64,000 bases of DNA from Thermoanaerobaculia bacterium (lineage in GTDB: Bacteria > Acidobacteriota > Thermoanaerobaculia > Multivoradales > UBA5704), in assembly GCA_049284515.1 (NCBI GenBank), contig JBAPYB010000416.1, positions 3,582 to 67,581 of the forward strand. Direction: 5' to 3'. A program made the translations under genes and the position numbers. The first letter of the stretch is position 1; the number at the start of each line of letters is the position of its first letter. Below, piece after piece: positions 9,345 through 38,173 of the stretch. The notes beneath the pieces were generated by a model that did no database searches, was not told the DNA's origin, and saw only the letters and a list, made by a program, of their open reading frames with translations.

Positions 9345-9377
9345 CTATTAACGGCGCCCCCTCGTCTTCTTGCTTAT

Positions 9378-9449: not shown

Positions 9450-9477
9450 AACTCTCTGGCGGCGACCGTAATGGCCG

Positions 9478-9545: not shown

Positions 9546-9609
9546 TCTTGGGAGGGTGGCAAGCCCTGGTTCCGTGCTATGGTCCCCTGTCGCTTCCGGA
9601 GGGAACCCG

Positions 9610-9846
9610 ATGAACCGGCAGACGCTGGCTCTCAGCATCGAGCAGGAGCTTTTGGAGGAGGCGCACGCAGTGGCGGTGCGGCGGCATACGTCCGTCAACG
9701 AGATGGTCCGCCAGTTCTTGAAGCAGGTCGTCCGGCAGGAACGCAAGCGCCTCGAGGCCTGGCACGACGTCAAGAAGCTCTTGGAAAAGCCCCAGGTCCG
9801 GCTCGGACCGGCTCTCCGGAGCCGGGAGCGGCTCCATGAAAGGTGA
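9610..9846 (+). CDS. VapB-like antitoxin
   Basis: ATG at 9610, trimmed from ORF 9478..9846 whose N-terminus reads through the REP element. 78 aa. Overlaps the start of the downstream PIN gene. Confidence 0.7.
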   Translation: MNRQTLALSIEQELLEEAHAVAVRRHTSVNEMVRQFLKQVVRQERKRLEAWHDVKKLLEKPQVRLGPALRSRERLHER

Positions 9847-10261
9847 GCTCGCCGCCTTCGTCGACACCAGCGTCCTCGTCTATGCCGTCTGCGCCGACCA
9901 GCCCCACAAGCAGCGGCTGGCCCGCAGCATCGTCGAGCGCGGTTTCGTCGAGGGGTGCTATGCCACCAGCACTCAGGTCCTCGTGGAGCTCTACGACCTC
10001 CTCACCCGTTGCGCCGAGGTGAAGCTCTCCGCCATGGAGGCCGCCGACTTCGTCCGCGCCCTCCGCGAGTGGCACCTCGTCGAGATGGACTCCGACCTCG
10101 TCTCCGCCGCCCTCAGCCTCGCCGAGCGCGAGGAAATGTCCCCCTGGGACGCCGCCATCCTCGAAGCCGCCCGCCGGGCGGACTGCACCCGCGTGCTCTC
10201 CGAGTCGCTACCGGCAGGGCGGACGTACGAGGGGGTACGGGTGGAGAATCCGTTCGCGTAG
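9836..10261 (+). CDS. vapC: PIN-domain toxin VapC
   Basis: 141 aa. N-terminus is AFVDTSVLVYAV (PIN acidic motif). The 11-nt overlap with the antitoxin is typical vapBC architecture. Confidence 0.85.
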   Translation: MKGELAAFVDTSVLVYAVCADQPHKQRLARSIVERGFVEGCYATSTQVLVELYDLLTRCAEVKLSAMEAADFVRALREWHLVEMDSDLVSAALSLAEREEMSPWDAAILEAARRADCTRVLSESLPAGRTYEGVRVENPFA

Positions 10262-10353
10262 GCGGCGAAGTGTGTTACGCCCCCGGTGCAACGGACCGGT
10301 GAAGAACCCAACCCGCCGTGCTAGGATCGTGGTCTCCGGAAGGAGGCGCGGCA

Positions 10354-10908
10354 ATGGCAGTTCACGATCTCCCCCGCAAGCTCACCTACGACGATTACGC
10401 CTCGATCCCTGAGGATGGCCAGCGCCACGAGATCCTCGACGGAGAGCACTACGTGAGCCCAGCGCCTCTCATTCCGCATCAAGAGGTCTCTTCCAACCTG
10501 CACACGGAGCTGGGCCCGTTCATCAAGAAGCACCGGCTGGGCAAGCTGCTGGCCGCTCCCACGGACGTGATCCTCTCTACTCACGACGTCGTCCAGCCGG
10601 ACTTCCTCTTCATCTCGACCCAGCGGTTCGGGATCATCACCCGGGAGAACGTCCAGGGCGCGCCGGACCTGATCATCGAGATCCTCTCTCCAGGGACCCG
10701 CAGCCGGGATGAAGGAATCAAGAGGGAGATCTACGAGCGCTACGGCGTCCCGGAGTACTGGCTGCTCGATCCGGACCGCAAGACCACCCGAGTTTACCGG
10801 CGCCTCGGCAACCGGCTCCGCCTCGTCGCCAAGCTCTCCGCGGGGGACGTGCTCACGACGCCCTTGCTGCCGGGGCTCGAAATCCGGCTGGCCGACGTCT
10901 TCAACTGA
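10354..10908 (+). CDS. Uma2-family (DUF820) putative endonuclease
   Basis: Contains YDDY...GQRHEILDGE...PDF.F......GAPDLIIEILSP...D...K...Y...GVPEYWLLD, the characteristic Uma2 pattern. Probable start is M13 of the ORF. Confidence 0.85.
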   Translation: MAVHDLPRKLTYDDYASIPEDGQRHEILDGEHYVSPAPLIPHQEVSSNLHTELGPFIKKHRLGKLLAAPTDVILSTHDVVQPDFLFISTQRFGIITRENVQGAPDLIIEILSPGTRSRDEGIKREIYERYGVPEYWLLDPDRKTTRVYRRLGNRLRLVAKLSAGDVLTTPLLPGLEIRLADVFN

Positions 10909-11300
10909 GGGCGGGCTGGAGTCTCAATGCCAACCACTACCCACGCCAGCACGGCGCAAGCCACGGCAGCAAACACAACCGATGCAACCACATCCTTCGA
11001 CGACCGATAAACTCTAAGTATTCGGCGTAAATGTTCCCCTTTCGAACCGCGCTCCTCCAGTCTTTGCTCTTCGACGGCCCGCGCTTGAAACCAACCAACA
11101 CAGTCCGCCAAGAATGTCAAGATGACTCCAACCGCTAAAAGGGACAGATACGTCAACCGCACTCCCCCGCGAACCCCATCGCTGGTCATCAAATTGACAG
11201 CGCTTGCCAAAAGTATTACAGCCAAAACATCATAGAACCGCCGGCTCAAACTAAAGACCAGCACTATCAGTGCAAACCAGAATTCTGCTAACATCCTCAC
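10794..11300 (-). CDS. Small integral membrane protein, last gene of the island operon
   Basis: 168 aa with about 4 hydrophobic helices. Its last ~38 codons read antisense through the 3' end of the Uma2 gene, so the native C-terminus is uncertain. Confidence 0.5.
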   Translation of the reverse strand: MRMLAEFWFALIVLVFSLSRRFYDVLAVILLASAVNLMTSDGVRGGVRLTYLSLLAVGVILTFLADCVGWFQARAVEEQRLEERGSKGEHLRRILRVYRSSKDVVASVVFAAVACAVLAWVVVGIETPARPQLKTSASRISSPGSKGVVSTSPAESLATRRSRLPRRR

Positions 11301-11303
11301 ATT

Positions 11304-12641
11304 TCACCGAGCCTTCCTATCCTGTAGCAACTCCACCACTTTCCTCACGCGCAAGTCATTCCCGCCGCTCTCGTCGATATTTCTACAGTCTTCTTGCCAT
11401 TTCTCTAGTCGCCCCCTATCTTGCTCCGCTTCAATAATTGCACCAAACTCTCTACCCTCTTCTGAAACAGGCTGAAGCAGCCTACGGTAAGTGTCACTAT
11501 TCCAAAGGCTACTCCAGATCCGACGCCACAACGCCAAAGTCTCGCCCCGCAAAACGCTAAGTGCTTGTTCTTTAGAGCGCTCTTCTTCTACTTCAAGGTC
11601 GGATAGTCCACCCGTAGCCTTTGGGTGAAATAGCCGAACTAAGAAAGCCAGCCTACTTGCGTCAATGATCAGGCCCGCTGCGCTGAGCTCCGAAACAATC
11701 GCCTCACTTGTCGACTCTTCCTTTTGTCGCTTTCGTACAACGCTCTCTACATACGTCCTCGCATCCTCCGAAAGGTCGCCGCAAATTTCGTCCACACAAC
11801 TCCTAAATGCGAGGGAGTAGCGCTCCGCCACAGCGAGGAGAAAACCCCAAAGCCCTCTTCGGTCACCGGGCAAAGGTACCGCCCTTGGAAGGCTTACGAC
11901 CTGATCTGCGAACCATTTACAAAGCATGGCGATCAGATGCGGATGCCTTCCACAGAAGGCTAAAATATCTTGTTCTACATACCTCAACTGAAAGTCCTCG
12001 CGCTCCTCCTTTCCAATCACCCTTGAAATAACCCCTCGTATAAGCTCCCGGCTTTCCTCTTCACTGAGCCCACGGATCACCATGTCGGGCCTCCCGACAA
12101 TTGGCTTCGGAAATGGTCGCTTGGACCATGCCACTTCTCCAGAATCATTCCTCTCCTCAAATACGATCTTAACCTCTACGTCACCTAGGAGCCCAGAAAA
12201 AATACTATTGACCTGAGCATCGATTTTGCTCGTCCTTCCCGGAACTCGAACTAAGAGCCGCTTTATCCCCATTCGCTTTAATCCATCAGCGATCATATAA
12301 CCCAGCCCCAAGAGGGACCGGCCTCTGGAAAGCTCCGCCGCCTGCTGAGCCCACTCCTTTCCGAGGTTGGACCCAACAAACTCTATGAGACCTTCAAGAG
12401 GCGTCTTATCTATGGGCTCAGGAACAAGCTTAAAGTATGCACCTCCATTGGCGACCACTTCAAAGGCTCTAACGATCATGCACGTCTTGCCGATCCTGTA
12501 CACTCCACGGACTCGTCGCAGATCGGAGCCGGAATCCGCCATGAAGGCCTTTAACTGCTCGAAAGGCCTCAAACGCGTACCTGTCGCCTCTAACCCGACG
12601 AGCACTTCGCCCTCCCCAAGCTTTTCGTTCTTCTCTTCCAT
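11304..12641 (-). CDS. Hypothetical protein in the island operon (~445 aa)
   Basis: Long ORF in low-GC DNA with the start trimmed to MEEKNEKLG. No motif was recognised by eye. Confidence 0.55.
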   Translation of the reverse strand: MEEKNEKLGEGEVLVGLEATGTRLRPFEQLKAFMADSGSDLRRVRGVYRIGKTCMIVRAFEVVANGGAYFKLVPEPIDKTPLEGLIEFVGSNLGKEWAQQAAELSRGRSLLGLGYMIADGLKRMGIKRLLVRVPGRTSKIDAQVNSIFSGLLGDVEVKIVFEERNDSGEVAWSKRPFPKPIVGRPDMVIRGLSEEESRELIRGVISRVIGKEEREDFQLRYVEQDILAFCGRHPHLIAMLCKWFADQVVSLPRAVPLPGDRRGLWGFLLAVAERYSLAFRSCVDEICGDLSEDARTYVESVVRKRQKEESTSEAIVSELSAAGLIIDASRLAFLVRLFHPKATGGLSDLEVEEERSKEQALSVLRGETLALWRRIWSSLWNSDTYRRLLQPVSEEGREFGAIIEAEQDRGRLEKWQEDCRNIDESGGNDLRVRKVVELLQDRKAR

Positions 12642-12661
12642 AGGGGCACTCACAATGGTCG

Positions 12662-14578
12662 TCAGACCCCTTCTACTCTGCTTGCTTGAGCCAGTAGACC
12701 TACCCTCAACCGACAAGTCTTGTTTGCTTCGTCAATATGGATGATCTCTTTCTCAGCCAGAGCCTGGATCAGCGGGCCTTCCGCTGCCACTACCTTCCTC
12801 GTGTAACCATGCTCCGAAAAACGCTCGGCGGTGCCGACCAGCCGTACAAGGAAGGTCCACTCTTCCTCGCTAATGCTTTCGCTCATGTACGCGATATAAT
12901 TGTGCTCCGTCACCAAAACCTCTTTGGCGACGGCTTTCATGATCTTTATGTCAATCGGAAATCTTCCTCCGTGGGCCGCGACGTAATCTACCGCTCTTTG
13001 GAACAAAAGCTGTGCCAACCCAGGCCACCCTCCGCTTGCGCACCAAATGTATTCTACCGCTAAATCGGTAAATTTGATCGATTCGGACACTTCTGCGAGT
13101 CTCTGTAAGTCGGGCAGGCTTAGGAAAGGCACTCTTCTCGGCAGCACTGAAACGCCTCCTGAATCGAAGCGTGTTTTCCAACCCCGGGACGACCAATCAT
13201 GCGTAACAAGCATTCTGTAACCGTTAGCACCACTGGCGAGTTCTTCAAGCAAGTCCAAAACCACGCTGGCATTACCCTTTAAGTTTGAGCGAATGACTGG
13301 TATGTCTAGTTCGTCAATGAAAAAGATAAATCCTTGCCTATCTGTGGCCTGAGATAGAAGCCCCAGAATCTCTCGTAGCCCTTCCGCCGAGAGGCTAAAC
13401 TGCGGACACCTCTGTAACACTCCACTATTCCTGGAGACGCTCTCCGCTATATCCAAATTGCCAACGGCCAAGCTGGAGACATACCTTTGCGCGCTGGCTG
13501 CGAGCTCAAAGCATATGTCACCGGCGCCTAAAACGTCATCTCCGTCCATTCTATTTTCCCACCATCCGAACACGTCAAGGACAAGAGGCATAAACTTCTT
13601 CTCTGCCTCTACCTCCCTCGCAATCCTTCTGAGAACAGTTGTCTTTCCTGTCCGACGGCAGCCACGTAACACAACCACTTTCTCCCCGCCCCAACTCTGC
13701 CCAGACAGTTCAGCTACGAGTGCCTTGTGCCGGCCCTTAACCAGCCGTTCCCACTGTAGCTCCGAAATGAGCGGTAAGTCCGCCACATACGGATTGACGA
13801 CGCTCAATGGCGGCGTGGGCGTGTGAAGGATGACCTCAAGATGGTTTGAGGATAGCATCCTCTCCGATGCCGATGCCGCACCGGACCAGCTTGATTCCGC
13901 CCAGAATTCGAGAACGCAGTCTTGCTCATATCTCACAGTGACAACTCTCCGAAGGCCCGAGTGCCCGGTAATATCTCCTAAACGCACAGTCCACAACCTC
14001 TTTTGCTTATCCCAAACTGAATCTTCAATACTAGGCTTACCATCGCCCAGCGCACGGAGATAAAGGGATGTGGCTCCTGCTCCCAATCGGCCTCTGTTTT
14101 CGATTGAAATCGGCAGGTCGAGAGAGTAAGGTCCACTCGCAGAATGGAGATCCTCTTCTATGACTTCGTGATCGAGTGACACAGCAAGGGACACGAGAAG
14201 AAACGCATTCTCCTCCTCACCGCGCAACCCTCTCAACCAACGGCGGGCTGTTTCGAGCATGATCAATTCTTCTGGAAGCCCCTCATCATCGATAGCCATG
14301 ATTTCTTCAAAAGCTGCGAGCCGGTCAGCCAGAAGATCGGGAGTACCGGAGCTACAAAAAGCCTCAGCTGAGTAGCCGACTAACTCTTTAAGGGGAGTCC
14401 TACCTTGAACGCTGTCTGCTGAAAAGGTGACGTTCTCCTGGAGAGGAGACGCGGTCGCAATTCTTACCAGTTCCGAGTAGACATTAACCCTTTCCTTCGC
14501 TCCTGGAACGCCGATCTCCGCAAGATTCATAAGCTCGTCGCGGTATCGGCCTAGCGCTTCCACCTCACGTAATTTCAT
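12662..14578 (-). CDS. STAND/ORC-like P-loop ATPase
   Basis: 638 aa. Walker A is LRGCRRTGKTTVL and Walker B is FIFFIDELD. A long N-terminal extension of ~300 aa and a helical C-terminus are present. Confidence 0.7.
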   Translation of the reverse strand: MKLREVEALGRYRDELMNLAEIGVPGAKERVNVYSELVRIATASPLQENVTFSADSVQGRTPLKELVGYSAEAFCSSGTPDLLADRLAAFEEIMAIDDEGLPEELIMLETARRWLRGLRGEEENAFLLVSLAVSLDHEVIEEDLHSASGPYSLDLPISIENRGRLGAGATSLYLRALGDGKPSIEDSVWDKQKRLWTVRLGDITGHSGLRRVVTVRYEQDCVLEFWAESSWSGAASASERMLSSNHLEVILHTPTPPLSVVNPYVADLPLISELQWERLVKGRHKALVAELSGQSWGGEKVVVLRGCRRTGKTTVLRRIAREVEAEKKFMPLVLDVFGWWENRMDGDDVLGAGDICFELAASAQRYVSSLAVGNLDIAESVSRNSGVLQRCPQFSLSAEGLREILGLLSQATDRQGFIFFIDELDIPVIRSNLKGNASVVLDLLEELASGANGYRMLVTHDWSSRGWKTRFDSGGVSVLPRRVPFLSLPDLQRLAEVSESIKFTDLAVEYIWCASGGWPGLAQLLFQRAVDYVAAHGGRFPIDIKIMKAVAKEVLVTEHNYIAYMSESISEEEWTFLVRLVGTAERFSEHGYTRKVVAAEGPLIQALAEKEIIHIDEANKTCRLRVGLLAQASRVEGV

Positions 14579-15977
14579 TACCCCCTCCTACCGCCATTCT
14601 CAAATCCCACGCAGCTTTAGATAGGTTCCGTATCCCTCGATAGAGTCCTGCTTCTCCGTCGATGCTGCCGGGTGATTCCTTCATCTCTATGAAACCACGA
14701 AGAAGCTCCACGCCGAGCGGCTGTACTCGAAACGACTCGTACTCTTCCAGCAAAATTTCGGGATGCAAAATCCATCTACGCGCAATCACAGGGGCGAGAC
14801 TCCAGGCGATCTCTCGGGGCTTCTCATTAGAAAGCAAGCCGACAATCCGAAGTCTCTCGTGCTCTAGGTCGGCGCAATGGTTAATCATTGCCGATAGGAT
14901 TTCTCTCAGTTCCTCGCTTATGGTCCCCCCCGACTCTCGCGCCAACGAAACTCCTTCTGTGAGGGCGGCTTCGAGGGCCAAATTTGCTTCATCGCGTTTA
15001 CCAACTTTTTTGCCGAGCTCCACCGCGGCACTTCGCATCCTCTCTACTTTCGCAAGACTTACAGATACTGAGCCTCTTCTCAGTCGCGCTCTCCTCCAGA
15101 GCAAGTAGGACCAGAGCGCTAGAGCACCAAAGCCGATGGGCAACCAAACGCGGACCATCTTCCCTCGGTACCCGCTCCACATATTCTCCGTTGACCCACC
15201 TGAGAGAACTCGAGGTCTCGGTTCCAGCGATATCGGAGCTTCAAGTTTATTCTGGAGAATGCGTCTTGTCTCCAGGAGGAGATTGGTGCCCTCCGACACT
15301 CGGATATACCTTCCATGCCCCAACACCCTCTGCCAGAGAAGCATCTCGCGTTGGCGATCCCCAACTGCTAGAATATTGACCTCTGCACCCCAAGCCTCCA
15401 GACTCCTGATGGCTTGCACAGGTGAAACAGAGTTAGTTGCTGTATACAAATCCTCGCCGCTAAGATAGCTTTTCTCCTCTGGTTCGCTCATTCGCCTCGG
15501 TTGAAGCCAAGGTTCCCCATCTGTAATCATGAAAACCAGACACATGCGATTGACAAAGCAAGGCTTGCCTCTCCGGAAGGCTGATAGAGCGTATTGAAGT
15601 GGAGGCCTGAAGTCCGTGAATGAGATCGGCACTGAGTACGAGAAAGGCGCCTGATCTCCCGACTTGCCATCCATCACTATTTTCGCTCCCAATTTTTCTC
15701 CAAAATCAACCGCTTCTATGTGAACCTCTAAACCGTAGAAATCGACCGCGCCTGCGAATTGCCTTAAAAGGCTCGTGGCTAATTTCGTTACGGCCGGTTC
15801 TCCGTTGTACTTCCTTGCCACCATGCTCGGTGATCTGTCTAGAAGAAGTACGATGTCCAATTTCGGCTCTGCGCTACTCACTTGCCCTAAGACTTCAGCC
15901 GAGACCCCCGTTGTTAACAGAGTCGAGAGTAGGAGAACTTCGAAAAGCACTCTTCCGACTGGTAGGTGTAAGGACAT
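14565..15977 (-). CDS. Membrane-anchored vWA-domain protein
   Basis: 470 aa. N-terminal signal-like segment is LLLSTLLTTGVSA. MIDAS motif is LLLDRSPSM and MITDGEPW follows. An internal TM helix (VWLPIGFGALALWSYLLW) precedes a helical tail. Confidence 0.7.
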   Translation of the reverse strand: MSLHLPVGRVLFEVLLLSTLLTTGVSAEVLGQVSSAEPKLDIVLLLDRSPSMVARKYNGEPAVTKLATSLLRQFAGAVDFYGLEVHIEAVDFGEKLGAKIVMDGKSGDQAPFSYSVPISFTDFRPPLQYALSAFRRGKPCFVNRMCLVFMITDGEPWLQPRRMSEPEEKSYLSGEDLYTATNSVSPVQAIRSLEAWGAEVNILAVGDRQREMLLWQRVLGHGRYIRVSEGTNLLLETRRILQNKLEAPISLEPRPRVLSGGSTENMWSGYRGKMVRVWLPIGFGALALWSYLLWRRARLRRGSVSVSLAKVERMRSAAVELGKKVGKRDEANLALEAALTEGVSLARESGGTISEELREILSAMINHCADLEHERLRIVGLLSNEKPREIAWSLAPVIARRWILHPEILLEEYESFRVQPLGVELLRGFIEMKESPGSIDGEAGLYRGIRNLSKAAWDLRMAVGGGNEIT

Positions 15978-16140
15978 AAGCTAGCCAACGTTAACGTTCT
16001 TGCAGCGCTTCTCGCAGAAGTCCTTTTCACCTTGTAAAACAACACCCTCAGAGGCAGCAATACGGCTTATGAAAGGACTCCAGCAGAGAATGAGCGCTTT
16101 TCTGGGTCTCATGGATGACCACCAAATCTGCGAGGTCGGC

Positions 16141-17646
16141 CTACTTTCTCTCGAAGTTCAAAGACAAGCATCCGCGGTAGCGGCTACGGCCCACGGTCTT
16201 CTGTAAGATGCTAGTCGAGACATCGCGAAGGTAGAGGGTCTTTCCTGAAATTGCTTTCGGGGAGGTGTCATCCTGTGTGCTCCAAGCGCCGAGCCAATTC
16301 TCTGCCCCGATGAAACTCATGTCGACAGAAATTGACAAAGGGATGGCTAGCTTCCATCGATCGCGCGGCTGCGAGACTAGTCGCTCGTAAGGGATCGAGA
16401 GCTCTAAGTACTGAACCATGGAACTATCCTGCACTGGCTGCTGGCGCTTGACCTCGAAGTGAGGGATGCCGCGTGTTAATCTCGCACCGAGATCCAGATT
16501 CCCCTCGGACGCACTCTTCCAAGCCTGCAAAGGTAGGCTTAGCAAAACGTCATCTTGGTTGATAGATAATCGAACCTTCACAGGAAATAGAATCTCCGAG
16601 GATCTTGGTTGCTCGAAGTCTAGCTCAGCTAAGCTCATTGAGGTATCCATCGGGCGATGAGTCCAGCTCCGAACACGAAATATATCGACGAAACCGGGCG
16701 AGGCCTGCTGATCTCCCGGCCCGTGAGAAACCTCTATCTCTTCTGGTTCTTCAACTACGAGTGAAGGCAAAATCCCAGGAAAGAACTCGATGACCTGGCT
16801 CTTGGAATGGCTACCTGCACTCAGACCGCTGTACCTTTCCAAATCTTCATGCAATCTCGCGACGAGTCGGCGCCCCTTCTCCCAATCTCGAGATACAACC
16901 CAACAATAGAAAGGCCTTTCACTCCCTTGCTGCAAGGTTATCCTTTGATTGGTTACAACACCCGCCGGTCCTCGGGTAAGAAGTACACTATAATAGACTC
17001 CATCGAAAGGGCTTTGAACTCCCAGAAGCCAAACCCCGAATCCTTTACCTGCAAGATCTCCCGTTACTGCCCTAACGATACCGGACCGATCAAAGCCAAA
17101 AGCTCTTCGTTCTTTAAAGGTCTCCAAATCTTGGGTGTTGTCCGTGATTACGACACTGAGAGAGGATTCCTTTCCGGAAGCTCGCTCTAGAGCCGCAACA
17201 ATATCCGTGTCGCGCTGGGAATAACTTCCCCTGCTTCTAACGAAATCTTGAAGATGGCTTAAAGGCGAGGGCGATGTAGGAACTTCACTTCCAAACGGAT
17301 AGAATCCTGGCACAACACCAAGGTCGTTCAATTCCTCCAGCAAAAGACTTTGCAAGAGTTGCTGGAGAGGTGACACGGGCATCGCGTGAGTAGCGTCACT
17401 AAGATATCCCTGCATAGACTCGGAGGAGTCCAGGTAGATATCCGCTTGGGTGACTGGCGCTGAAGCAAACTCGGTTGCTTTCTCAGAGTGGCACAATTTC
17501 TCCGCGTCCTCCGTACCCTCAGTGGTCCCTCCGCAAGATGTTCCCAAGAAAAGGGCGACTGTTGCCAACAGAGCAAGCCGGACAGTTAGCCGGTCGTTGA
17601 TTCTGCCCCTCCTCATCGATAGCCTCCTCAAAGCCTCAGACGACAA
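16141..17646 (-). CDS. Secreted or lipoprotein-like vWA-like protein
   Basis: 501 aa. Signal sequence has a lipobox-like FLGTSC. MIDAS-like motif is IYLDSSESM and VVITDNTQD follows. Confidence 0.6.
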   Translation of the reverse strand: MSSEALRRLSMRRGRINDRLTVRLALLATVALFLGTSCGGTTEGTEDAEKLCHSEKATEFASAPVTQADIYLDSSESMQGYLSDATHAMPVSPLQQLLQSLLLEELNDLGVVPGFYPFGSEVPTSPSPLSHLQDFVRSRGSYSQRDTDIVAALERASGKESSLSVVITDNTQDLETFKERRAFGFDRSGIVRAVTGDLAGKGFGVWLLGVQSPFDGVYYSVLLTRGPAGVVTNQRITLQQGSERPFYCWVVSRDWEKGRRLVARLHEDLERYSGLSAGSHSKSQVIEFFPGILPSLVVEEPEEIEVSHGPGDQQASPGFVDIFRVRSWTHRPMDTSMSLAELDFEQPRSSEILFPVKVRLSINQDDVLLSLPLQAWKSASEGNLDLGARLTRGIPHFEVKRQQPVQDSSMVQYLELSIPYERLVSQPRDRWKLAIPLSISVDMSFIGAENWLGAWSTQDDTSPKAISGKTLYLRDVSTSILQKTVGRSRYRGCLSLNFERK

Positions 17647-18454
17647 AGGTGCCCCTCCTCACCACCAAATCCTTCGAAATAAAGCCTTCGAGGGACCCCT
17701 GCGCTTCCAGGAGGGCACAGCGCCGAAGCTCTTTCACGAAGAGATCCACGCTTCCGCTGGCTCCCAGAACCTCAAAGAGATGATCATGCACCAGGGGATC
17801 ATAGCGGCTATAGTTGCGTGGGATGAGAAAGCGCCTGCAGTCCTTCTGGGGATCTCGGTATGCCACTGACAAGAAAAACCAATGATTCGAGCCGCCTCTC
17901 TCCACAGAGGGATAAGGCTCGATAATAGGTTCCGCTAAGCCCTCATTTCGAAAGTAATCGAGAAGTTTTTTCGATGCTTCCTCGAAGGCTCCTTCCATCC
18001 CAGGCCACACCCCCGCCAAGAATCCTGGCGCACTCAATTCACGAGCTAGCAGATTTTCGAGCGCGAGAGAATCCTGCTCCTCGCGTCTGGGGAGTTGCGG
18101 AAGCTGGTCAAGGTGCAGGGATGCAACGGCTTCATCTTCTTGGTTGTCATGCTGAGGAGCCCTTCTTGGTTCCGCCAGTTGCCCAGCCTTCCTGAAATCG
18201 GCTTGGAGCGCCAGAGCGTCGGTCAAGGGTTTGAGATCGAGGCTTTGGGGCTTCTGCGCCAGGATCTGCGTCAAAAGGAGATCGGTCTTACTCTCGACAT
18301 ACTTCTCGAGAGCCCGAAACTCCCGGCGCCAGTCCTCGATCGAAGGCAGGGACTGTCGGTTCTTTGCCTGCCGGCTCTGCAACCACAGCCACACTACGCC
18401 ACTGAGCGACAAGGCTTGGAGGACGACAAGCCAGATTAAGAGGGCCTGCTGCAA
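17636..18454 (-). CDS. N-terminally membrane-anchored protein of unknown function
   Basis: 272 aa. Has a single N-terminal TM helix (LLIWLVVLQALSLSGVVWLWL). Its start abuts the stop of the upstream gene. Confidence 0.55.
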   Translation of the reverse strand: MQQALLIWLVVLQALSLSGVVWLWLQSRQAKNRQSLPSIEDWRREFRALEKYVESKTDLLLTQILAQKPQSLDLKPLTDALALQADFRKAGQLAEPRRAPQHDNQEDEAVASLHLDQLPQLPRREEQDSLALENLLARELSAPGFLAGVWPGMEGAFEEASKKLLDYFRNEGLAEPIIEPYPSVERGGSNHWFFLSVAYRDPQKDCRRFLIPRNYSRYDPLVHDHLFEVLGASGSVDLFVKELRRCALLEAQGSLEGFISKDLVVRRGTFVV

Positions 18455-21400
18455 TCAGAGCCTCCTGGCTCGATAAAGCTGCTTCAGGTAGATCGTCTCG
18501 AGGAATCGCACGAGGATGCTGCGGTTTACCAACGGGCGCTCGATGTTCACGATGTCCTTGTTGCACTCCCTCTCAAGCGCTTGGACTTCGGCGCCTTTCT
18601 CGAACTGGATGAAATCCCAAGCTGGCGGGAGCTTGATCTCTGAAAGGACCGGATGCAAACGAGAGTCCGAGAGCTGATGGGGCACGACCTCATGCCAGGG
18701 CACATCTTCGCGCTTTCCCGAACCGTTGCTGTAGCGGACGTCAAATCCGACAACGGACCGGACGCCATTTACTCCGTTGCCGACATCCTCAATGCTGCGG
18801 TACAAATCTCTCTCTGCCGCTATGATCGTGCCGTAGCCAATCGCCGCCTTCGGTCCGGGCCAAGTAATACCGTTCCCGAGACTAGGCTCCCTTGCAGCCG
18901 TCAGTTTGGTGAAGCCCTCCCTCTCAAGAAGGAAGCGAAACACTTCACGAAAGCCGGCGCGGTAGTTAGAATCCTGGGAGGGTACGACATCGGCCAGAGA
19001 CCAGCCATTTCCTACGAGATAGAAGGTCACCTCTTCCTGACGATAGTCCTTCTGCCGATGGACCGACAATGAGTCGAACAAGCAACGAATAAAATGCGCG
19101 ATGGGAGAGTAGAATCGTATAAGCAGATCGATCATTACCTGCCGGGCATGAGCGTTGCCGCGATATTGCGTCCGCACGACGGTCTCGAATCCTCGCAGGC
19201 GGGTTTCCCGCAGCAACCACAAGAGGCGATGCCGCGCGTCGCGAGTCTCTGTGGGCTTCGGAAACAGGTCCGCTTGGCGATCATCGGCGAGTAGGCGCAG
19301 GAAGGCGTTGCCACCATAGAGCAGACTATCGATGAAGATTGGCTTCAGCTCGCTCTGATCCCATTCGAACATGCCGATGTCGGTAGTACCTCCCCCCATA
19401 TCTACAACCAAGGAGAGACCCTCAGGAACTCTTAGAGAAAACGCCGCCGCTCGCGACTCATCAATGAAGTGTTGAGTATTGGTCGGGAACCCAGTGAGCC
19501 TGTCGAGCGATTTCAAAACACGGTCAAGGCACTGGAGATACGTTTTCAACTTGGCTTGGGAAAAGGCTCGCGGGAATGACGCCCGCACTTTGAGGAATCC
19601 GGTCCTCGGCTCCTCGGCAATGATCGTCGCCAAGGTGAGAACGAGGAACAGCTCGAGGTAGCGAGACACGGCCTGTTCATAGGTGAAACGACCCGCGGCA
19701 TCGCCCTTCTCGTCCAAAGTCTTCAATTCGTAGATGACTTCTCCCTGGGGCTCCGAGACGTAGACGTGCAGAATGCGAAATCCGCCGATCGGCTTGTTCA
19801 GCATCTCCGCCGAGACCGGAGGAGTGACCACTAATTCTGACGGAATGAAGTAATTCATCCTCTCAATGATCTCGATGGGTTCTGGAGCCACGCCGTCCTC
19901 AGTTTGAAGTTCAGAGAAGTAGCGGGATCGAACCGTCTCCTCATCGTCGATGCGGTAAGTCGGCAGCCACTGAGAAGTCCGAATGATACGATCTGATATC
20001 GTTCGGTTTCCAATCAGCGTTTCGGTGAAGTCTCGAAACCGTATGACCTTGGGCGCATCGTCACCGATCCTATACCACACCGAGGAGCTCGACGTTCCAA
20101 AGTCGAGCGATATGGTCACCGGAGTCTGACCACGATGCTGCTCGACGCGAGAGGTCTCATAGATTCCCGACTGAGACTCGATCTTCCCGTCTTTAGAAAA
20201 GACAATCTCGAATGCTTCAAAAGGCTGCGTTAACTGGCCACGCCTGTCCGTTAACAGCGTCGGCTCACCGTGAGTATCCAGGCTTCGCAGGGTAATACCC
20301 GCCTTGTTCATCCCCGGGGTCGATTCAAGGAGGTAGTAGTATACGTTCCACCCCCTTAGGTTGAATCGCGGCCAGGAAAGGAGGATCGCTTCCTCCTTCT
20401 GGATCTCCTTGGGTGAGTACCGCAGAGTAATGGTGGTGCTCTTCCAGCCTTCGACGTTCACCTTTAGTGGTACGATGTAGTCACCCGACAGACGATCCAT
20501 TACAGCGCGCCTGTCATCCGCAATGGACACCAGTCCGTAGTACTCGCCCCGCACCGGCAAACTCGGCTCATACTGATGGCTGTTGTCCTGAGGGTCCTGA
20601 AAGAAGATCAGCCGAGTGCATTTGAGGGCGTCTTCCGTCAGGATGAGCCCGCGTATCTTGAGAGAGAATTTCCCCGTCTGGAGGACAATCCCATCTTGTT
20701 CGTAGGACACGTACTTGGAATAGGGGAGACGGCGCACGGGACTATCGGCAAAAGCATAAATGAGATAACGGTTTCGCCCCTCGTCAAATTTGATCCATGT
20801 CGCGTACTCCTCCAGCCAATTCTGCCTCGCGCCGCAGTGCGGGCAGCGACATTCATCAGGATGAGCGATGTCGACCTGACCTGTTTCTGTTGTGATGTCG
20901 AACCCGCAATTCTCGCAAACAATGGGCGTACCGATATAGAGAGGGATCTGGGGCTGTGAAACTTCTGCGGCCAAGCCAGCCTCCCCCAGGCGCAGAACCG
21001 GTCCAACTCCGAAGAGCCGCGCAGGCTCCCGCGGCAGCGAGCCCGATGCATCGGGATTCCACACCGCCGCCAACCTGTAGACCAAGGTGTAGAAGGGCAG
21101 ACGCCCCTGGTCTTGCTCATCGAAGGTGCGAACCCAACCGACGAAATACTCGGACGCCTTTTCCACATCCTTCGCCTGGACCGCCTCCTTCAAAGACGCG
21201 AGGGTCTCAGGTCTCAAGCGGGAAGCAGGAGCGAAACCGATACCTGGATACGTGAAGCCAATAACGCTACCAGAATACGTCAGGAATTGAAACCGAAATC
21301 CGGATTCGAACGATTCGAACTCTCGGTGGAGGATCAGCCCCAATTCTTTTAAATCCTCCAGCTTGACGTCTCGCGGTGTGATTAAGCCGAGATAGATTCC

Positions 21401-21667
21401 CTTGAGTATCAGGCTCCAGAGCTCGAAGCTCTCGCTGAAGCGAAGCCTGGAGCCCTTACCCTGGAGATCTAGCAGGTATTGGTCGAGACGATTTGCAAAG
21501 ACGAGCGCGTTCGCCAGCGGCGAAGGGGTTCCGAAGTCGCTGGCATCGAAGTAGTTCTCGCATAGATTGCGCTGATAATCCAGATCGGAGACCCCGTGGA
21601 GGCCAACCTCGGCTTGGTGGGGCCAATCCTGCACTTTCGGCTTGGGCAGCAGGGGAACGGTCGCCAT
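18455..21667 (-). CDS. Giant Hsp70/actin-fold ATPase with an N-terminal region containing a zinc ribbon
   Basis: 1070 aa. Zinc ribbon is CENCG...18 aa...CPHCG (aa 251-279). Phosphate-1 is SLDFGTSSSSV (aa ~519). Phosphate-2 is VVDMGGGTTDIG (aa ~753). An adenosine-like motif FYLVGNGWS is present. Confidence 0.75.
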   Translation of the reverse strand: MATVPLLPKPKVQDWPHQAEVGLHGVSDLDYQRNLCENYFDASDFGTPSPLANALVFANRLDQYLLDLQGKGSRLRFSESFELWSLILKGIYLGLITPRDVKLEDLKELGLILHREFESFESGFRFQFLTYSGSVIGFTYPGIGFAPASRLRPETLASLKEAVQAKDVEKASEYFVGWVRTFDEQDQGRLPFYTLVYRLAAVWNPDASGSLPREPARLFGVGPVLRLGEAGLAAEVSQPQIPLYIGTPIVCENCGFDITTETGQVDIAHPDECRCPHCGARQNWLEEYATWIKFDEGRNRYLIYAFADSPVRRLPYSKYVSYEQDGIVLQTGKFSLKIRGLILTEDALKCTRLIFFQDPQDNSHQYEPSLPVRGEYYGLVSIADDRRAVMDRLSGDYIVPLKVNVEGWKSTTITLRYSPKEIQKEEAILLSWPRFNLRGWNVYYYLLESTPGMNKAGITLRSLDTHGEPTLLTDRRGQLTQPFEAFEIVFSKDGKIESQSGIYETSRVEQHRGQTPVTISLDFGTSSSSVWYRIGDDAPKVIRFRDFTETLIGNRTISDRIIRTSQWLPTYRIDDEETVRSRYFSELQTEDGVAPEPIEIIERMNYFIPSELVVTPPVSAEMLNKPIGGFRILHVYVSEPQGEVIYELKTLDEKGDAAGRFTYEQAVSRYLELFLVLTLATIIAEEPRTGFLKVRASFPRAFSQAKLKTYLQCLDRVLKSLDRLTGFPTNTQHFIDESRAAAFSLRVPEGLSLVVDMGGGTTDIGMFEWDQSELKPIFIDSLLYGGNAFLRLLADDRQADLFPKPTETRDARHRLLWLLRETRLRGFETVVRTQYRGNAHARQVMIDLLIRFYSPIAHFIRCLFDSLSVHRQKDYRQEEVTFYLVGNGWSLADVVPSQDSNYRAGFREVFRFLLEREGFTKLTAAREPSLGNGITWPGPKAAIGYGTIIAAERDLYRSIEDVGNGVNGVRSVVGFDVRYSNGSGKREDVPWHEVVPHQLSDSRLHPVLSEIKLPPAWDFIQFEKGAEVQALERECNKDIVNIERPLVNRSILVRFLETIYLKQLYRARRL

Positions 21668-21683
21668 CGCTTACCTCCAGACT

Positions 21684-23099
21684 CTACAGACTAAAAACTT
21701 GCGCCAGATGCGACAGGAAGAGGTTCGAGAATCTTTCCGCGAAGGCTTCGGGAGTGCGTAGGTCCCTCTTCGGAAACTGTGCCACGACGTGCCGATCGTC
21801 ACACCAATCCTGGATCGCGGCGAGCGGCTCGGCGACTGTCTGATCGTAGCGCTCCGCCAAGACTCTTTCGGCTCCCTCTGGGAATGGGAAAAAGTGGGGA
21901 TGGTTCATTTTCTTGATCCAATCAACATTGGCGGTTGACTGGCCCTGGAGTTTTCCGAGGTAATCGGCAACGGCAGCAGTCACCTGATTGTCCGTCAGCG
22001 TGGAGCCTTTCAGCATGTTGATCGCCGTCTGGATCAAGATAGGCTGATGTGAGCCCGGAAGTCGCGGGAACTTTCGGAAAAACTTGCTGAGGATGCCTAG
22101 CCAGTGGCCGCGAACGTACGACCGGTGGATCACCTTGATCAGGCTGAGGGGGTCGGCGTTCGCCTCGCGATTCACCAACAGGTTACTGGCATTGAGTCCG
22201 CTTTCATCGTCGTACCAATATCCAGCTATTCCCTGAGGTGGGGAGAGAGCACCGGCGAAATGATTCTGGACCAGCAGAGCTGCCAGGAGATTGAGGATAT
22301 GAGGGACCTCATCCTGCGACGACTCGCTGCTGGTCCGGTCCACCTGGCCGGGATCAGGAACACCCAGGAGAAATACCGTGTTCACAAATTGACGCAGCCG
22401 CTCCCGGAAGTAGTAGATGCCGGCGGCCGCATTAGGCTCGAAATTCGCATTGAGATAGTCGTGTAGCTTCGCCTGGGAGGCCTTCACTCCACCTTCTGGT
22501 GGGATGAGACGGAACCACGGTAAGAAGATCATGGCGTCCACCTGAAGGTTGTAGCCAGGCTGGCCATTCAAGCGGGAAAGCTCAGAGGCGAGCATCGGCA
22601 CCCCGCCGGACCCGGTGCCTCCAAAGCAGGAACCGACGAGAATGACGTGCTTCTCTCCTCCTCTCAAGGCGTTCTTCAGGTCCTTCATATCCTCGTCGTC
22701 CTGCTGGATCTTGTACTGGATGCAGGTGGCCCCGATCGCGGGCCGGCCATACATGCCGGTACGGATCGGCGTATGCTCCGCTTCTTCGGAGAAGAGGCAA
22801 TTGAAGAGCTCCCGGCGGTCCCCCGCCAGGTTTCCGAACAAACTGCCAAACGTCTTTCGGTCGGCATCGGCGATCGGAAAGGGGTCGATCATCCAGCGGA
22901 GAGGGGGCTCCTTTCCACCTACCACTTCTTTGACCCTTCCCTTGAGCGTTGCGAGCACGCGGCCCAACGGGCCTTCGGTGTCTGAATCCACGACGTAGAA
23001 CGTCGCCGGAGTAAAGCCGGCCATCTCCGCAAGCCGCAGGTAGGCAGCGAGGACCATCTGCCCAGTACCGCCAACTCCGATGAGAACAGGGATCTTCAT
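21684..23099 (-). CDS. Tubulin/FtsZ-superfamily GTPase (Tubulin_2/FtsZl1-like)
   Basis: 471 aa. T1-like loop is VLIGVGGTGQ. T3-like loop is GMYGRPAIGA. The tubulin signature is GSCFGGTGSGGVP (nt ~22602-22622). Confidence 0.75.
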   Translation of the reverse strand: MKIPVLIGVGGTGQMVLAAYLRLAEMAGFTPATFYVVDSDTEGPLGRVLATLKGRVKEVVGGKEPPLRWMIDPFPIADADRKTFGSLFGNLAGDRRELFNCLFSEEAEHTPIRTGMYGRPAIGATCIQYKIQQDDEDMKDLKNALRGGEKHVILVGSCFGGTGSGGVPMLASELSRLNGQPGYNLQVDAMIFLPWFRLIPPEGGVKASQAKLHDYLNANFEPNAAAGIYYFRERLRQFVNTVFLLGVPDPGQVDRTSSESSQDEVPHILNLLAALLVQNHFAGALSPPQGIAGYWYDDESGLNASNLLVNREANADPLSLIKVIHRSYVRGHWLGILSKFFRKFPRLPGSHQPILIQTAINMLKGSTLTDNQVTAAVADYLGKLQGQSTANVDWIKKMNHPHFFPFPEGAERVLAERYDQTVAEPLAAIQDWCDDRHVVAQFPKRDLRTPEAFAERFSNLFLSHLAQVFSL

Positions 23100-23113
23100 G
23101 TCAACTCCTTGCC

Positions 23114-23746
23114 TCAGCCATTCTCCATGATGCGCTGAAATTTCTTTGCTGTCACGGACCTTGGAAGCGTCACTCCTACCCAGAAGAAGAGAAACGCCGC
23201 CAGGAGAGAAGTCAATAGAATGAAAAGGCCGAGAACGAGGCCGCCAAGCCAGCTTCGCAAGGCCCAGGCGGCAGGAAGGAACTGCTTGGCGAGCTCGACC
23301 TCATTGGTCGGCTGAAAGATAGCCCTGGGCAGGCCGATGCCTGAAAGGATGCACGCGACGGCGAACAGCAGGAACAACGCATTGAACCAGGACTTCGATT
23401 CTCGGTCGGCGGCAATGGCACGCGCGTTCATGGCTGAGGTCCAGCGATACCAACCCGCGAGCCCCATACCCATGAAGAGACTGATCAGAGCCCACACAGA
23501 GAGAAATAGCCATTTCTGGCTGGCTACGAACTCAGGGCGGATCAAGCCGCTTGAGCTCGTGTCGATCGGGCCGAGAAAGCGCCCCGTTATCGCGTTGACC
23601 TGGTTTGGCAACAAAGTCGTGTAGATGCTGAACATAACCGACAAGATCGTTGCGATTGAGGCTGCCACGTTGAAAACGGCGTCGAGCTTGCGCTGGTTGG
23701 CCACAGAAATCTCCTCACGCGTAAGCGCGGAACAAAATCGAGACAA
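23114..23746 (-). CDS. Integral membrane protein, first gene of the island operon
   Basis: 210 aa with about 4 TM helices. TTG start; an alternative GTG start lies at 23704. Confidence 0.6.
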   Translation of the reverse strand: MSRFCSALTREEISVANQRKLDAVFNVAASIATILSVMFSIYTTLLPNQVNAITGRFLGPIDTSSSGLIRPEFVASQKWLFLSVWALISLFMGMGLAGWYRWTSAMNARAIAADRESKSWFNALFLLFAVACILSGIGLPRAIFQPTNEVELAKQFLPAAWALRSWLGGLVLGLFILLTSLLAAFLFFWVGVTLPRSVTAKKFQRIMENG

Positions 23747-23815
23747 CAGCCCTCAAGAGAGGACGGGATCCCAGGCCTCTACATGTTCATTTAGGCACAG
23801 AGCACTCGTAGCCCT

Positions 23816-23844
23816 AGTATTCCACGCAGCGACGGGCTGGTCAA
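23816..23844 (-). promoter_or_regulatory. Candidate sigma-70 promoter of the island operon
   Basis: The minus strand reads TTGACC-17 nt-AATACT about 70 nt upstream of the first gene. The match is weak. Confidence 0.25.
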
Positions 23845-24072
23845 GGCTTCAAGGTCAGGCTAAAAATAGTTACGCATCGAAATATTGCAATGCTAGGCTA
23901 CGACGCTGGCCGCCCCTCTGTTCTAACCCCTGAAGACACCAGCCAAGTGGCTTTGGTTAGACGGATTGGACGCCGCAGGTGCTCGTGCTCCCGGCCCCTC
24001 CCGGCCCCTCCTTTACCTGTAAGCAACCCCGGTTCCGTGCTATGGTCCCCTGTCGCTTCCGGAGGGAACCCG

Positions 24073-24279
24073 ATGAACCGGCAGACGCTGGCTCTCAGCA
24101 TCGAGCAGGAGCTTTTGGAGGAGGCGCATGCGGTGGCGGTGCGGCGGCATACGTCGGTCAACGAGATGGTCCGCGCAAGCGCCTCGAAGCCTGGCACGAC
24201 GTCAGGAAGCTCCTGGAGAAGCCCCAGGTCTGGCTCGGGCCGGCTCTCCGGAGCCGGGAGCGGCTCCATGAAAGGTGAG
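24073..24279 (+). pseudogene. Degenerate second copy of vapB plus the first 4 codons of vapC
   Basis: 24031-24279 matches 9568-9847 apart from a few substitutions and a 31-bp internal deletion that shifts the frame. Similarity ends after ATGAAAGGTGAG. Confidence 0.75.
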
Positions 24280-24413: not shown

Positions 24414-24725
24414 CTAGCCAATGCGGCGGTTCAGATCCCCGTAAGACAGGTGGAGCAGAGTCTTCACCTCCCCGATCTCTTTCCTGAGCTCCGATCGGTG
24501 AGCAACGAGCTTCTCGTCGAAAGTGCCCATCTTCTCCGCGAGCAACTGAACGTCCCCACGCAGACCCTCTACCATGACCTGGGTATGCCGGACACCTTCC
24601 TCCACGCGCTCAATGCGGCCGTTGGTCTCTTCGAACCTGCCGTTGGTCTCTTCGCGGAAGCTTGCAAGCTGCTGAGCGCTTTCGCGGAAGCGTTCGTCGA
24701 GATAGGTGATCAAGTCTTTGTCCAT
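24414..24725 (-). CDS. Small coiled-coil protein, hypothetical
   Basis: 103 aa starting at MDKDLITYL. Heptad-rich sequence; trimmed from the 148-aa ORF. Confidence 0.5.
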   Translation of the reverse strand: MDKDLITYLDERFRESAQQLASFREETNGRFEETNGRIERVEEGVRHTQVMVEGLRGDVQLLAEKMGTFDEKLVAHRSELRKEIGEVKTLLHLSYGDLNRRIG

Positions 24726-38159: not shown

Positions 38160-38173
38160 TTCTTCCCCAGGCG

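Follow-up and report, generated by a model that had tools for sequence, protein, structure and literature searches.

What is encoded in a discrete block of low-G+C (guanine plus cytosine) DNA in the genome of a Thermoanaerobaculia bacterium (Acidobacteriota), and what might it do? The block lies in a stretch of 64,000 nucleotides (nt) at positions 3,582 to 67,581 of contig JBAPYB010000416.1 (GenBank assembly GCA_049284515.1), referred to below as the window, and carries nine open reading frames (ORFs) on the minus strand, named g1 to g9 in the direction of transcription. An initial annotation, made from the sequence alone, had read them as one horizontally acquired operon in which a tubulin-like GTPase (g2) and an Hsp70/actin-fold ATPase (g3) are combined with vWA, STAND-ATPase and membrane components. 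All nine ORFs were recovered at the coordinates it gave, as were the close junctions between them, i.e. the abutment at 18455/18454, overlaps of 11 nt (17636-17646) and 14 nt (14565-14578) and a gap of 163 nt (15978-16140); the gaps after g1 and g2 measure 14 nt and 16 nt. In place of a single nine-gene operon, we find a five-gene core (g1-g5) with g2 and g3 at its centre, an optional triad (g6-g8) and a non-conserved junction ORF (g9). The likeliest reading, to which we give about even odds, is that it encodes a conflict (defence-type) system that is horizontally mobile, membrane-associated and nucleotide-driven.

In the annotation of the metagenome-assembled genome (MAG), g3, g2 and g5 are listed as hypothetical proteins (WAM82_22910, WAM82_22915 and WAM82_22900, respectively). 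Single-sequence scans of the block proteins gave no match reaching a curated threshold in Pfam, NCBIfam or PADLOC and no match in PHROG; as single-sequence matches stayed below threshold, family alignments and structure prediction were needed. The AlphaFold model of g2 has a predicted local distance difference test score (pLDDT) of 87.6 and a predicted template modelling score (pTM) of 0.90. When it was compared with the PDB using Foldseek, the best-ranked 50 matches were all tubulin, FtsZ, CetZ or BtubA, with E-values from 2e-6, and 725 PDB matches were obtained at E <= 1e-3, the TM-score relative to the target being about 0.4; phage tubulins matched less well than cellular ones. Residues G10, G11, G13 and Q14 of the T1 loop and G160-G161-T162-G163-S164-G165 of the T4 loop are invariant in 35 sequences, and the family profile aligns the GGTGSGG motif to that of CetZ (4b46). 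As judged from the model, the fold of g2 is that of the tubulin/FtsZ superfamily, as initially proposed. After about residue 300 the model is all-helical and contains no beta-sheet C-terminal domain, so that the canonical FtsZ/tubulin C-terminal domain is missing; in the superfamily this domain bears the T7 loop, by which the GTPase site of the adjacent filament subunit is completed.

The second large core protein, g3, is laid out in five parts: a conserved peptide (residues 1-48), a helical region (~50-240), a zinc ribbon of the CxxC...CxxC type with four invariant cysteines (C251, C254, C275 and C278), a beta-rich region (~290-510) and an Hsp70-type ATPase domain (~515-1070). In Foldseek searches with its model (pLDDT 81.6, pTM 0.73), the best-ranked 50 PDB matches were all members of the Hsp70 family (Hsp70/BiP/DnaK) at E 1e-11, and TM-scores of 0.55-0.58 were reached against isolated Hsp70 nucleotide-binding domains. 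Searched against the PDB, the family profile matched Hsp70 nucleotide-binding domains at the DMGGGTTD region, the others listed being exopolyphosphatase and EutJ, which have the ASKHA fold. Residues D522, G524, T525, E737, D756, G758, D763 and G886, which cover the phosphate-1, connect-1, phosphate-2 and adenosine motifs, do not vary across the 39 sequences that represent the wide g3 family, the only exception seen being the TIR fusion protein P0023 described below. The proposed Hsp70-type ATPase and zinc ribbon are thus borne out by the model, the Foldseek matches and the invariant ASKHA motifs, and the C-terminal half of g3 is, by its model, an Hsp70-type nucleotide-binding domain. Pfam HSP70 was matched above threshold by none of the 24 g3 members; 14 matched it weakly (best E 1.7e-3). 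Identification of g3 as a canonical Hsp70 chaperone of the DnaK family was rejected: its extra domains precede the nucleotide-binding domain, which in the canonical chaperone is followed by a substrate-binding domain and lid, the Pfam HSP70 threshold is not reached, and neither GrpE nor DnaJ was found in the loci examined. The first 48 residues (21524-21667) contain more than 20 nearly invariant positions and are among the most conserved of the family, yet are modelled at pLDDT < 50; to judge by conservation and model, this segment behaves as would a peptide that becomes folded only when bound to a partner.

The two proteins recur together. Among 5.8 billion proteins, 24 homologs were found for g3 and 38 for g2, all of them from metagenomes or MAGs and none functionally named. 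An exhaustive profile search of 1.84 billion representatives returned 595 g3-related clusters (at 50% identity), 193 of them at E <= 1e-10, and no Pfam family covering these clusters was found. Ten of the clusters are fusions of 1590-1790 residues, with an N-terminus that matches the g2 hidden Markov model (HMM; E 1e-12 to 1e-37) and a g3-like C-terminus; one such g2-g3 fusion constitutes the Methylococcaceae locus L008. In the very distant loci L010 and L017, g2-like and g3-like genes are adjacent, with a weak g5-like ORF nearby. The recurrent fusion is strong evidence that both proteins act as one physical unit, and from these comparisons g2 and g3 probably work together physically. In L010 (a Methylococcales MAG, 5516-10291), the tubulin-like gene is apparently frameshifted, with matches in two frames, and the g3-like region is divided between two ORFs (6845-8395 and 8447-10291), through either gene fission or an assembly error. 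In P0023 (L003, 10001-12982), a g3 homolog, a TIR domain stands in place of the N-terminal 245 residues and the ATPase motifs are degenerate (DFGTS to DFDTS, DMGGGTTD to NMGSDTTD); its gene stands alone, directly downstream of PIN and DUF6364 genes that are not homologous to those of the window. These DUF6364/PIN genes had been considered as an insertion-site mark shared by the window and L003, a lead that was dropped, the proteins being not detectably similar. A lead towards SrfA/SrfB, raised by faint matches of g8 and of the distant protein P0142, was likewise rejected, as SrfB did not recur among the 24 close and 17 wider members.

For comparison of gene content, the window and 11 further distinct loci were used, with genes assigned by BLAST and family HMMs. 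The initial annotation had taken co-occurrence elsewhere in conserved order as the mark of a real unit, and this holds for the core: g1-g5 are present in all twelve loci with order and orientation kept, although g1 would lie beyond the contig end in L016. The triad g6-g7-g8 is present in seven of the twelve, g7 and g8 being absent from the other five, and in L015 the core stands alone. The G+C content of the core ranges from 37% to 67% across loci; in several hosts the upstream flank exceeds the operon in G+C, and the core is always richer in G+C than the accessory part. A scan of reference genomes returned only three distant relatives and no close ones (all in Gammaproteobacteria MAGs, two of Methylococcales and one of Rhodanobacteraceae), a metagenome scan with the ~860-residue clade returned one locus only, its patterns being too generic, and a scan of viral contigs returned no relatives. 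In L005 (5145-7210), L006 (2366-3010) and L012 (5109-6494), the core is immediately preceded by one or two AraC-type (HTH_18) regulator genes, which suggests dedicated transcriptional control there; the block of the window contains no such gene. Promoter and terminator scans performed no better than on shuffled sequence and are uninformative on an internal promoter in the 163-nt gap between g5 and g6.

The remaining core proteins would place the pair at the membrane. Homologs of g1, a small membrane protein, were found by HMM in ten of the 11 other loci, the contig of L016 ending before g1, and no family match was obtained for it in Pfam, NCBIfam or PADLOC scans. In g4, hydropathy and charge distribution show positive charges after the N-terminal anchor, and the conserved C-terminal domain is predicted to be cytoplasmic; a PDB profile search with g4 gave no meaningful match. 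For g5, the family alignment shows C38, D73, S75, T168 and D169 to be invariant. As the signal sequence ends in the invariant Cys38, g5 is lipoprotein-like and, by these features, probably a lipoprotein, which retains one half of its initial description as a vWA-like lipoprotein. The other half is tentative: its DxSx[ST] and TD motifs align with the metal-ion-dependent adhesion site (MIDAS) motifs of g6, but the hhalign comparison with the g6 vWA profile has a probability of only 1.2%, and neither a PDB profile search nor a Pfam scan gave a match. A homolog search with the g5 profile found only four proteins, none of them an annotated relative.

Of the triad, g6 is the vWA-transmembrane protein that it had been taken for. 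Its family profile matched vWA structures in the PDB (4cn8 at E 2.8e-8, and also 3txa, 2ww8, TRAP and VWA2), and the MIDAS residues D47, S49, S51, T121 and D153 are all invariant. The hydrophobic segment is followed by RRARLRR and then by a helical tail; signal sequence, transmembrane segment and RRARLRR together imply an outward-facing vWA domain and a cytoplasmic tail. In L011 (15441-18352), the g6 homolog is split by an insertion sequence (IS) element with a DDE_Tnp_1 transposase (16301-17470), from which it follows that the accessory module is being lost or is dispensable in that genome. The motifs of g7 are invariant in its family (Walker A GCRRTGKT at 306, Walker B at about D422-D425, GGWPG at 515-519). 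Its Pfam matches are weak and below threshold (AAA_14, AAA_16, ATPase_2 and nSTAND5, with AAA_35 on the L006 fusion), the best PDB match is the archaeal ATPase 2fna at E 9e-4, and there is no C-terminal repeat array, although sensor repeats are usual in STAND NTPases; the description of g7 as a STAND-like P-loop ATPase is upheld at the level of weak family matches only. The third member, g8, had been listed as a 445-residue protein of unknown function and was revised in both respects. Alignment of the g8 and g7 families with hhalign (probability 91%, E 1e-6, 262 columns) identifies it as a paralog of the g7 NTPase module that lacks an acidic Walker B motif, for which reason it is probably non-hydrolysing, as far as motifs can tell. 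The first possible start, TTG at 12716, gives 470 residues and an overlap with g7, and the 445-residue form corresponds to an internal ATG at residue 26. Homologs of g8 follow those of g7 in L005, L006, L007, L011, L012 and L014, and in L006 and L012 the g6 and g7 homologs are fused into one protein of 1269-1364 residues. A receptor with vWA outside and ATPase inside, formed by g6 and g7, may thus carry signals across the membrane.

The last ORF, g9, is a doubtful member. It extends beyond the block, its final ~39 codons (10794-10910) being antisense to the Uma2-family gene at the left border, and the same antisense peptide is encoded at the duplicate of the Uma2 end (9360-9449). No homolog was found in the other 11 loci, including a 159-residue ORF at the equivalent position in L007; g9 may be a truncated or fortuitous ORF. 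The coordinates of the block, its genes and borders are given in Table 1, together with the genes that stand beside the core elsewhere.

Table 1. Features of the low-G+C block and its borders in the window, and partner genes of the core at other loci.
Feature	Location	Strand	Description
Low-G+C block	10911-24022 (13,112 nt)		between Uma2 stop and vapB-like (DUF6364) gene; delimited by G+C contrast and paralogous empty arrangement
Uma2-family gene, left border	10318-10908	+	Pfam Uma2, E 2e-36; last ~100 nt duplicated
Left direct-repeat copy	9559-9847	+	upstream region and DUF6364 antitoxin gene (Pfam), then intact PIN toxin 9836-10261 (Pfam)
Right direct-repeat copy	24023-24279	+	degenerate DUF6364 antitoxin gene; abuts block, without PIN partner
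g1, core	23114-23746	-	~200-residue membrane protein, four hydrophobic segments (hydropathy scan)
g2, core	21684-23099	-	471 residues; tubulin/FtsZ-superfamily GTPase by model (~1-300), all-helical C-terminal domain
g3, core	18455-21667	-	1070 residues, five parts
g4, core	17636-18454	-	membrane anchor (residues 5-23), coiled-coil and variable linker, conserved ~130-residue C-terminal domain
g5, core	16141-17646	-	exported; signal sequence, invariant Cys38; conserved DxSx[ST]...TD motif
g6, accessory	14565-15977	-	signal sequence, extracytoplasmic vWA, transmembrane segment (~277-296), cytoplasmic helical domain
g7, accessory	12662-14578	-	AAA+/STAND-like P-loop NTPase behind ~290-residue N-terminal domain
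g8, accessory	11304-12716	-	paralog of g7 module; Walker A GVYRIGKT at 71, no acidic Walker B
g9	10794-11300	-	hydrophobic ORF, not conserved; doubtful system member
CHAT proteases	L004, L013		other downstream/flanking genes
CarboxypepD_reg protein and RHS/YD protein	L001		other downstream/flanking genes
LRR-Roc-COR-Mrr_cat protein and TPR	L016		other downstream/flanking genes; the LRR-Roc-COR-Mrr_cat protein comes after the core
vWA-OmpA protein and TPR	L014		in addition to triad

The block was acquired horizontally as a discrete unit. Its G+C content is 0.544, compared to 0.680 in the left and 0.649 in the right flank; in 1-kb windows the values are 0.50-0.59 from ~10.9 to 24.0 kb and 0.64-0.73 outside, and at third codon positions 0.54-0.71 in the genes of the block as against 0.81-0.94 in eight flanking ORFs. 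The drop reported initially is therefore present, and the contrast is smaller than had been stated, since the flanks, put at 77-80%, measure 64-73%. A repeat search of the window showed that the 3' end of the Uma2 gene (10813-10910) is duplicated at 9352-9449 with 86% identity (repeat family D3), and that 24023-24279, which comprises the upstream region and most of a small vapB-like antitoxin gene, is duplicated at 9559-9847 (~260-290 nt, 94-97% identity; the right copy has lost 31 nt by deletion). The Uma2-end fragment and the antitoxin element are separated by 109 nt in the left arrangement and by the 13,112 nt of low-G+C DNA in the right one. Because the paralogous copy has the 109-nt spacer in place of the block, the borders are fixed at 10911/24022, which sharpens the earlier limits (Uma2 stop at 10908 to ~24.03 kb); the window thus holds its own 'empty-site' paralog (9352-9847), and the block is a discrete insertion or replacement. 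G+C contrast and flanking repeats bear out the horizontal acquisition claimed at first. Pfam scans of the block proteins detected no integrase or transposase, and a tRNA scan detected no tRNA gene at the block borders.

To the left, the flank contains genes for an HrpB-type helicase, a Type ISP restriction-modification enzyme, a SEC-C protein, a YhgA-like protein (Transposase_31), the PIN/DUF6364 pair and Uma2, and the toxin-antitoxin, restriction and Uma2 neighbours noted initially are all present; to the right follow a CarboxypepD_reg protein, a histidine kinase, a sigma-54 activator and an M14 peptidase. Only the left side, then, has the character of a 'defence island'. The HrpB-type DEAH helicase gene (822-3365, plus strand) is convergent with the 1018-residue Type ISP-like gene (3362-6418, minus strand), in whose product methylase and specificity domains were detected and a helicase or nuclease part was not. 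To the right of the block, a perfect 16-nt tandem duplication, GCCGTTGGTCTCTTCG, with 21-nt spacing, is found at 24618-24654 within a 148-residue minus-strand ORF, and a second, smaller G+C dip (0.58) at 37500-39500 covers an ORF (38559-39437) with weak IS1/IS240 transposase and helix-turn-helix matches. A CarboxypepD_reg protein adjoins the system both in the window (24930-26879, divergent, outside the block) and in L001 (17237-19537, downstream, on the same strand). Such proteins are common in Acidobacteriota, and the adjacency in both places may be a coincidence.

The even chance that we give to a conflict system draws on a pattern that fits the grammar of such systems: a constant core with variable neighbours, partners with CHAT, RHS, Mrr and TIR domains, rarity, transfer, and surroundings of restriction and toxin-antitoxin genes. 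Predicted conflict systems have been described as organised in this way, with neighbours that vary around a fixed core (PMC7159879). The reading also draws on the folds and conserved nucleotide-binding motifs of g2 and g3, the synteny of g1-g5, the g2-g3 fusions and the topology of g4, g5 and g6. The CHAT proteases of L004 and L013 match the PADLOC SAVED_CHAT model at E 5e-17, and the protein that follows the core in L016 (8403-10979) is an 858-residue ROCO-type protein with LRR, Roc/Ras GTPase, COR-A/COR-B and Mrr-type nuclease domains. Under the conflict-system reading, g2 and g3 would form one complex at the inner membrane, held there by g1 and g4. ATP turnover by g3 would control the GTP-dependent assembly of g2, in functional analogy to FtsA with FtsZ, and g5 would couple the complex to events in the envelope or periplasm. 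The optional downstream module would serve as trigger or output. In the window, the vWA domain of g6 would bind a ligand outside via its MIDAS and pass a signal across the membrane to g7 and its inactive paralog g8, a route made plausible by the two genomes in which g6 and g7 form a single transmembrane protein; elsewhere, CHAT proteases, the RHS/YD protein, the LRR-Roc-COR-Mrr nuclease protein or a TIR domain would take the place of the triad. The outcome would probably be growth arrest, membrane damage or containment of the invader.

Several points weigh against this reading. No core protein matches any PADLOC model: in PADLOC-DB v2 the only matches from the window are those of g7 to PDC-S01, through the P-loop motif (E 1e-3), and of 21 residues of g3 to PDC-M61B, and the partner genes of other loci match at the domain level only (CHAT, TIR, OmpA/MotB). 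Family scans detected no recognisable toxic effector in the core. Such defence-type neighbours as there are were matched at the domain level, in single loci, and the TIR fusion is one protein on one contig with degenerate ATPase motifs. Several loci lie in housekeeping neighbourhoods, with ribosomal proteins and Obg in L007 and PBP1c in L011. Partners of the vWA, OmpA, TPR and lipoprotein kinds (L014) are found just as typically with envelope machines, and the vWA fold of g5 is tentative. The interaction of g2 and g3, membrane recruitment and the direction of signalling are all inferred, and the function is predicted.

The main rival is a non-immune role, which we regard as possible if somewhat unlikely: a cytoskeleton-like tubulin/Hsp70-like complex, lying beneath the inner membrane and linked by g1, g4 and g5 (and the vWA proteins, where present) to the periplasm or outer membrane, would act as an envelope or membrane-remodelling machine in vesicle formation, adhesion, surface motility or envelope maintenance, comparable to what has been proposed for the FtsZl1 operons. 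Membrane-bound or exported proteins account for three of the five in the core, the core is without an obvious toxic effector, some loci (L007, L011) have the housekeeping surroundings just mentioned, and partners of the vWA-transmembrane, vWA-OmpA and TPR kinds occur. There is precedent in the FtsZl1/vWA/OmpA prediction (PMC2875224) and in the gliding machinery of Myxococcus, whose adhesin CglB is a vWA lipoprotein of the outer membrane (PMC9946355). A structural machine would, however, not be expected to exchange its accessory genes for CHAT, RHS, Roc-COR-Mrr and TIR domains; the family is rare, patchy and unlike its hosts in G+C, it appears here as a discrete insertion in defence-type surroundings, and the IS-disrupted g6 of L011 suggests that this gene is dispensable.

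Membership in a system that has already been predicted, either the DO-GTPase/GAP1 systems or the FtsZl1-vWA-GTPase-OmpA operons, is improbable. The DO-GTPase/GAP1-N2 systems (Kaur, Burroughs, Iyer and Aravind, 2020, PMC7159879), themselves a computational prediction only, occur with a tubulin theme, which includes two vWA proteins, or with an HSP70-GrpE theme, the two being described as non-overlapping. For the FtsZl1 (Tubulin_2) operons, which also encode vWA, GTPase, protein kinase and OmpA proteins, a function in membrane remodelling has been predicted, and FtsZl1 itself comprises an FtsZ-like domain at the N-terminus, a long coiled coil and a helical C-terminal domain in ~1000 residues (Makarova and Koonin, 2010, PMC2875224). 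A tubulin homolog accompanied by exported or transmembrane vWA proteins and membrane components is a theme common to these systems and the block, and the adjacent paralogous P-loop proteins g7 and g8 superficially recall paired DO-GTPases. Tubulin_2 (PF13809) is also the best Pfam match of g2, at 22.4 bits below the gathering threshold of 27 bits; in a scan of the g2 family at E <= 0.01 it is matched by 29 of 35 members (best E 9e-7), and precomputed Pfam tables list it for seven of 38 g2-family proteins. Here, however, g2 has 471 residues, and with its homologs (467-482 residues, including a ~170-residue helical C-terminal region) it lacks the long coiled coil and the ~1000-residue architecture, so the FtsZl1 affiliation entertained at first was given up. 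No TRAFAC GTPase domain was detected in the nine proteins; g7 and g8 match models of AAA+/STAND type, lack [NT]KxD and, being absent from five of the twelve loci, cannot be the defining core. More specifically, the nine proteins gave no match to a GTPase family at E <= 1, dedicated DO-GTPase models being not confirmed in the Pfam copy used, and no GAP1 match in Pfam scans run without a GAP1 reference profile as positive control; nothing like GAP1, FNIII repeats, GrpE or DnaJ was detected in family scans. Finally, the tubulin-like and Hsp70-like proteins are here obligately paired and often fused, not alternative themes.

A segregation or maintenance module of a mobile element, in which TubZ-like or ParM-like partition filaments would be formed by the tubulin-like and actin-fold proteins, is very improbable. 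Both superfamilies do include segregation proteins of plasmids and phages, and the block was acquired horizontally, but family scans found no DNA-binding adaptor, replication, integrase or transfer gene in it, viral contigs and PHROG gave neither relatives nor matches, and the homologous loci lie on long chromosomal contigs. In structure, g2 is no closer to PhuZ and other phage tubulins than to cellular ones and g3 resembles Hsp70, not ParM or MreB; the three membrane-bound or exported proteins of the five-gene core also speak against partition. A chance juxtaposition of nine ORFs or wrong fold assignments, for which one could cite that all single-sequence family matches stay below curated thresholds, is refuted by the synteny across twelve loci, the fusions, the confident models and the consistent fold matches, and is scarcely credible.

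Tubulin and the Hsp70/actin fold are the two great families of nucleotide-driven assembly proteins. If the present reading is true, their obligate and often fused pairing on a mobile block, together with membrane and exported partners and with exchangeable protease, nuclease and TIR modules, represents a new way to build a bacterial conflict or envelope machine. It is conceivable, though doubtful, that the g2-g3 pair stands for a previously unrecognised, widespread class of prokaryotic two-NTPase machines, the 595 clusters at 50% identity being those of the g3 side alone. In this class a cytoskeletal-type polymer and a chaperone-type ATPase, joined in one assembly tethered to the membrane, would act as immune sensor or effector, an inducible 'cytoskeletal' complex for which no characterised counterpart exists; should the pair turn out to be a two-NTPase machine that works on its own, it might be ranked as a new class. 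The proteins add a family without a Pfam, NCBIfam or PADLOC model, and as a compact system with clear catalytic handles and natural fusion proteins they should be of interest to the prokaryotic cytoskeleton and immunity fields.

As to known systems, literature searches for a defence or envelope system combining tubulin and Hsp70/ASKHA proteins yielded nothing beyond the two comparative-genomics papers cited above, and the g2-g3 pair with g1, g4 and g5 is described in neither (PMC7159879, PMC2875224). PADLOC, PHROG and domain-level scans of the loci agree with the initial statement that no characterised system matches. A closer precedent than the FtsZl1 operons, not mentioned in the initial annotation, is provided by the DO-GTPase systems with their tubulin or HSP70 themes (Kaur et al., 2020), which were predicted to act via the regulated assembly of cytoskeleton-like complexes, an idea to which we liken the present system. 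As in those systems, a core that includes NTPases stays constant while its partners vary, the tubulin homolog ends in a helical C-terminal domain, a vWA protein spans the membrane and exposes its vWA domain outside the cell, the setting is membrane-proximal, and the associated domains include STAND NTPases, TIR domains and peptidases. In contrast, their HSP70 is a conventional chaperone, whereas the block encodes a giant zinc-ribbon Hsp70-like ATPase paired or fused with the tubulin-like protein, and their hosts are Firmicutes and Actinobacteria, as opposed to an Acidobacteriota MAG and diverse metagenomes here. With the FtsZl1 operons, the system shares an FtsZ/tubulin GTPase domain that has diverged very far and lacks the canonical C-terminal part, MIDAS-intact vWA proteins with signal peptides or transmembrane segments, an occasional OmpA protein (L014), many lineage-specific membrane proteins and a patchy distribution. 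It differs in that the core partner is an Hsp70-like ATPase in place of a GTPase and that vWA proteins, the commonest partner of FtsZl1, are optional (seven of twelve loci), unless g5 proves to be one.

In the divisome, FtsZ and FtsA combine a tubulin homolog with an actin/Hsp70-fold ATPase at the membrane. This pair, like MamK and FtsZm of the magnetosome island, resembles the present core in uniting a tubulin-superfamily GTPase, an ASKHA-fold ATPase and membrane tethers; the analogy is functional, as g3 is closest to Hsp70 nucleotide-binding domains and has no sequence relationship beyond the superfamily to FtsA, MreB or MamK. CnuD, the Hsp70-like protein with NBD and SBD of type III CoCoNuT systems (PMC11090510), likewise places an Hsp70-like domain in a predicted defence operon with vWA proteins. 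The CoCoNuT Hsp70-like proteins, however, occur with McrB/McrC, either as fusions or in association, their ATPase motifs are degenerate, in contrast to the invariant ones of g3, and they lack a tubulin partner; they were rejected as a different system. Set against these relatives, the block, with its five core genes, makes it possible to examine in a concrete case what Makarova and Koonin (2010) and Kaur et al. (2020) predicted, namely that divergent tubulins are parts of multi-protein systems at membranes, and there is, to our judgement, about an equal chance either way that it represents a variant, not described before, of the predicted membrane-associated conflict systems built on tubulin and vWA proteins.

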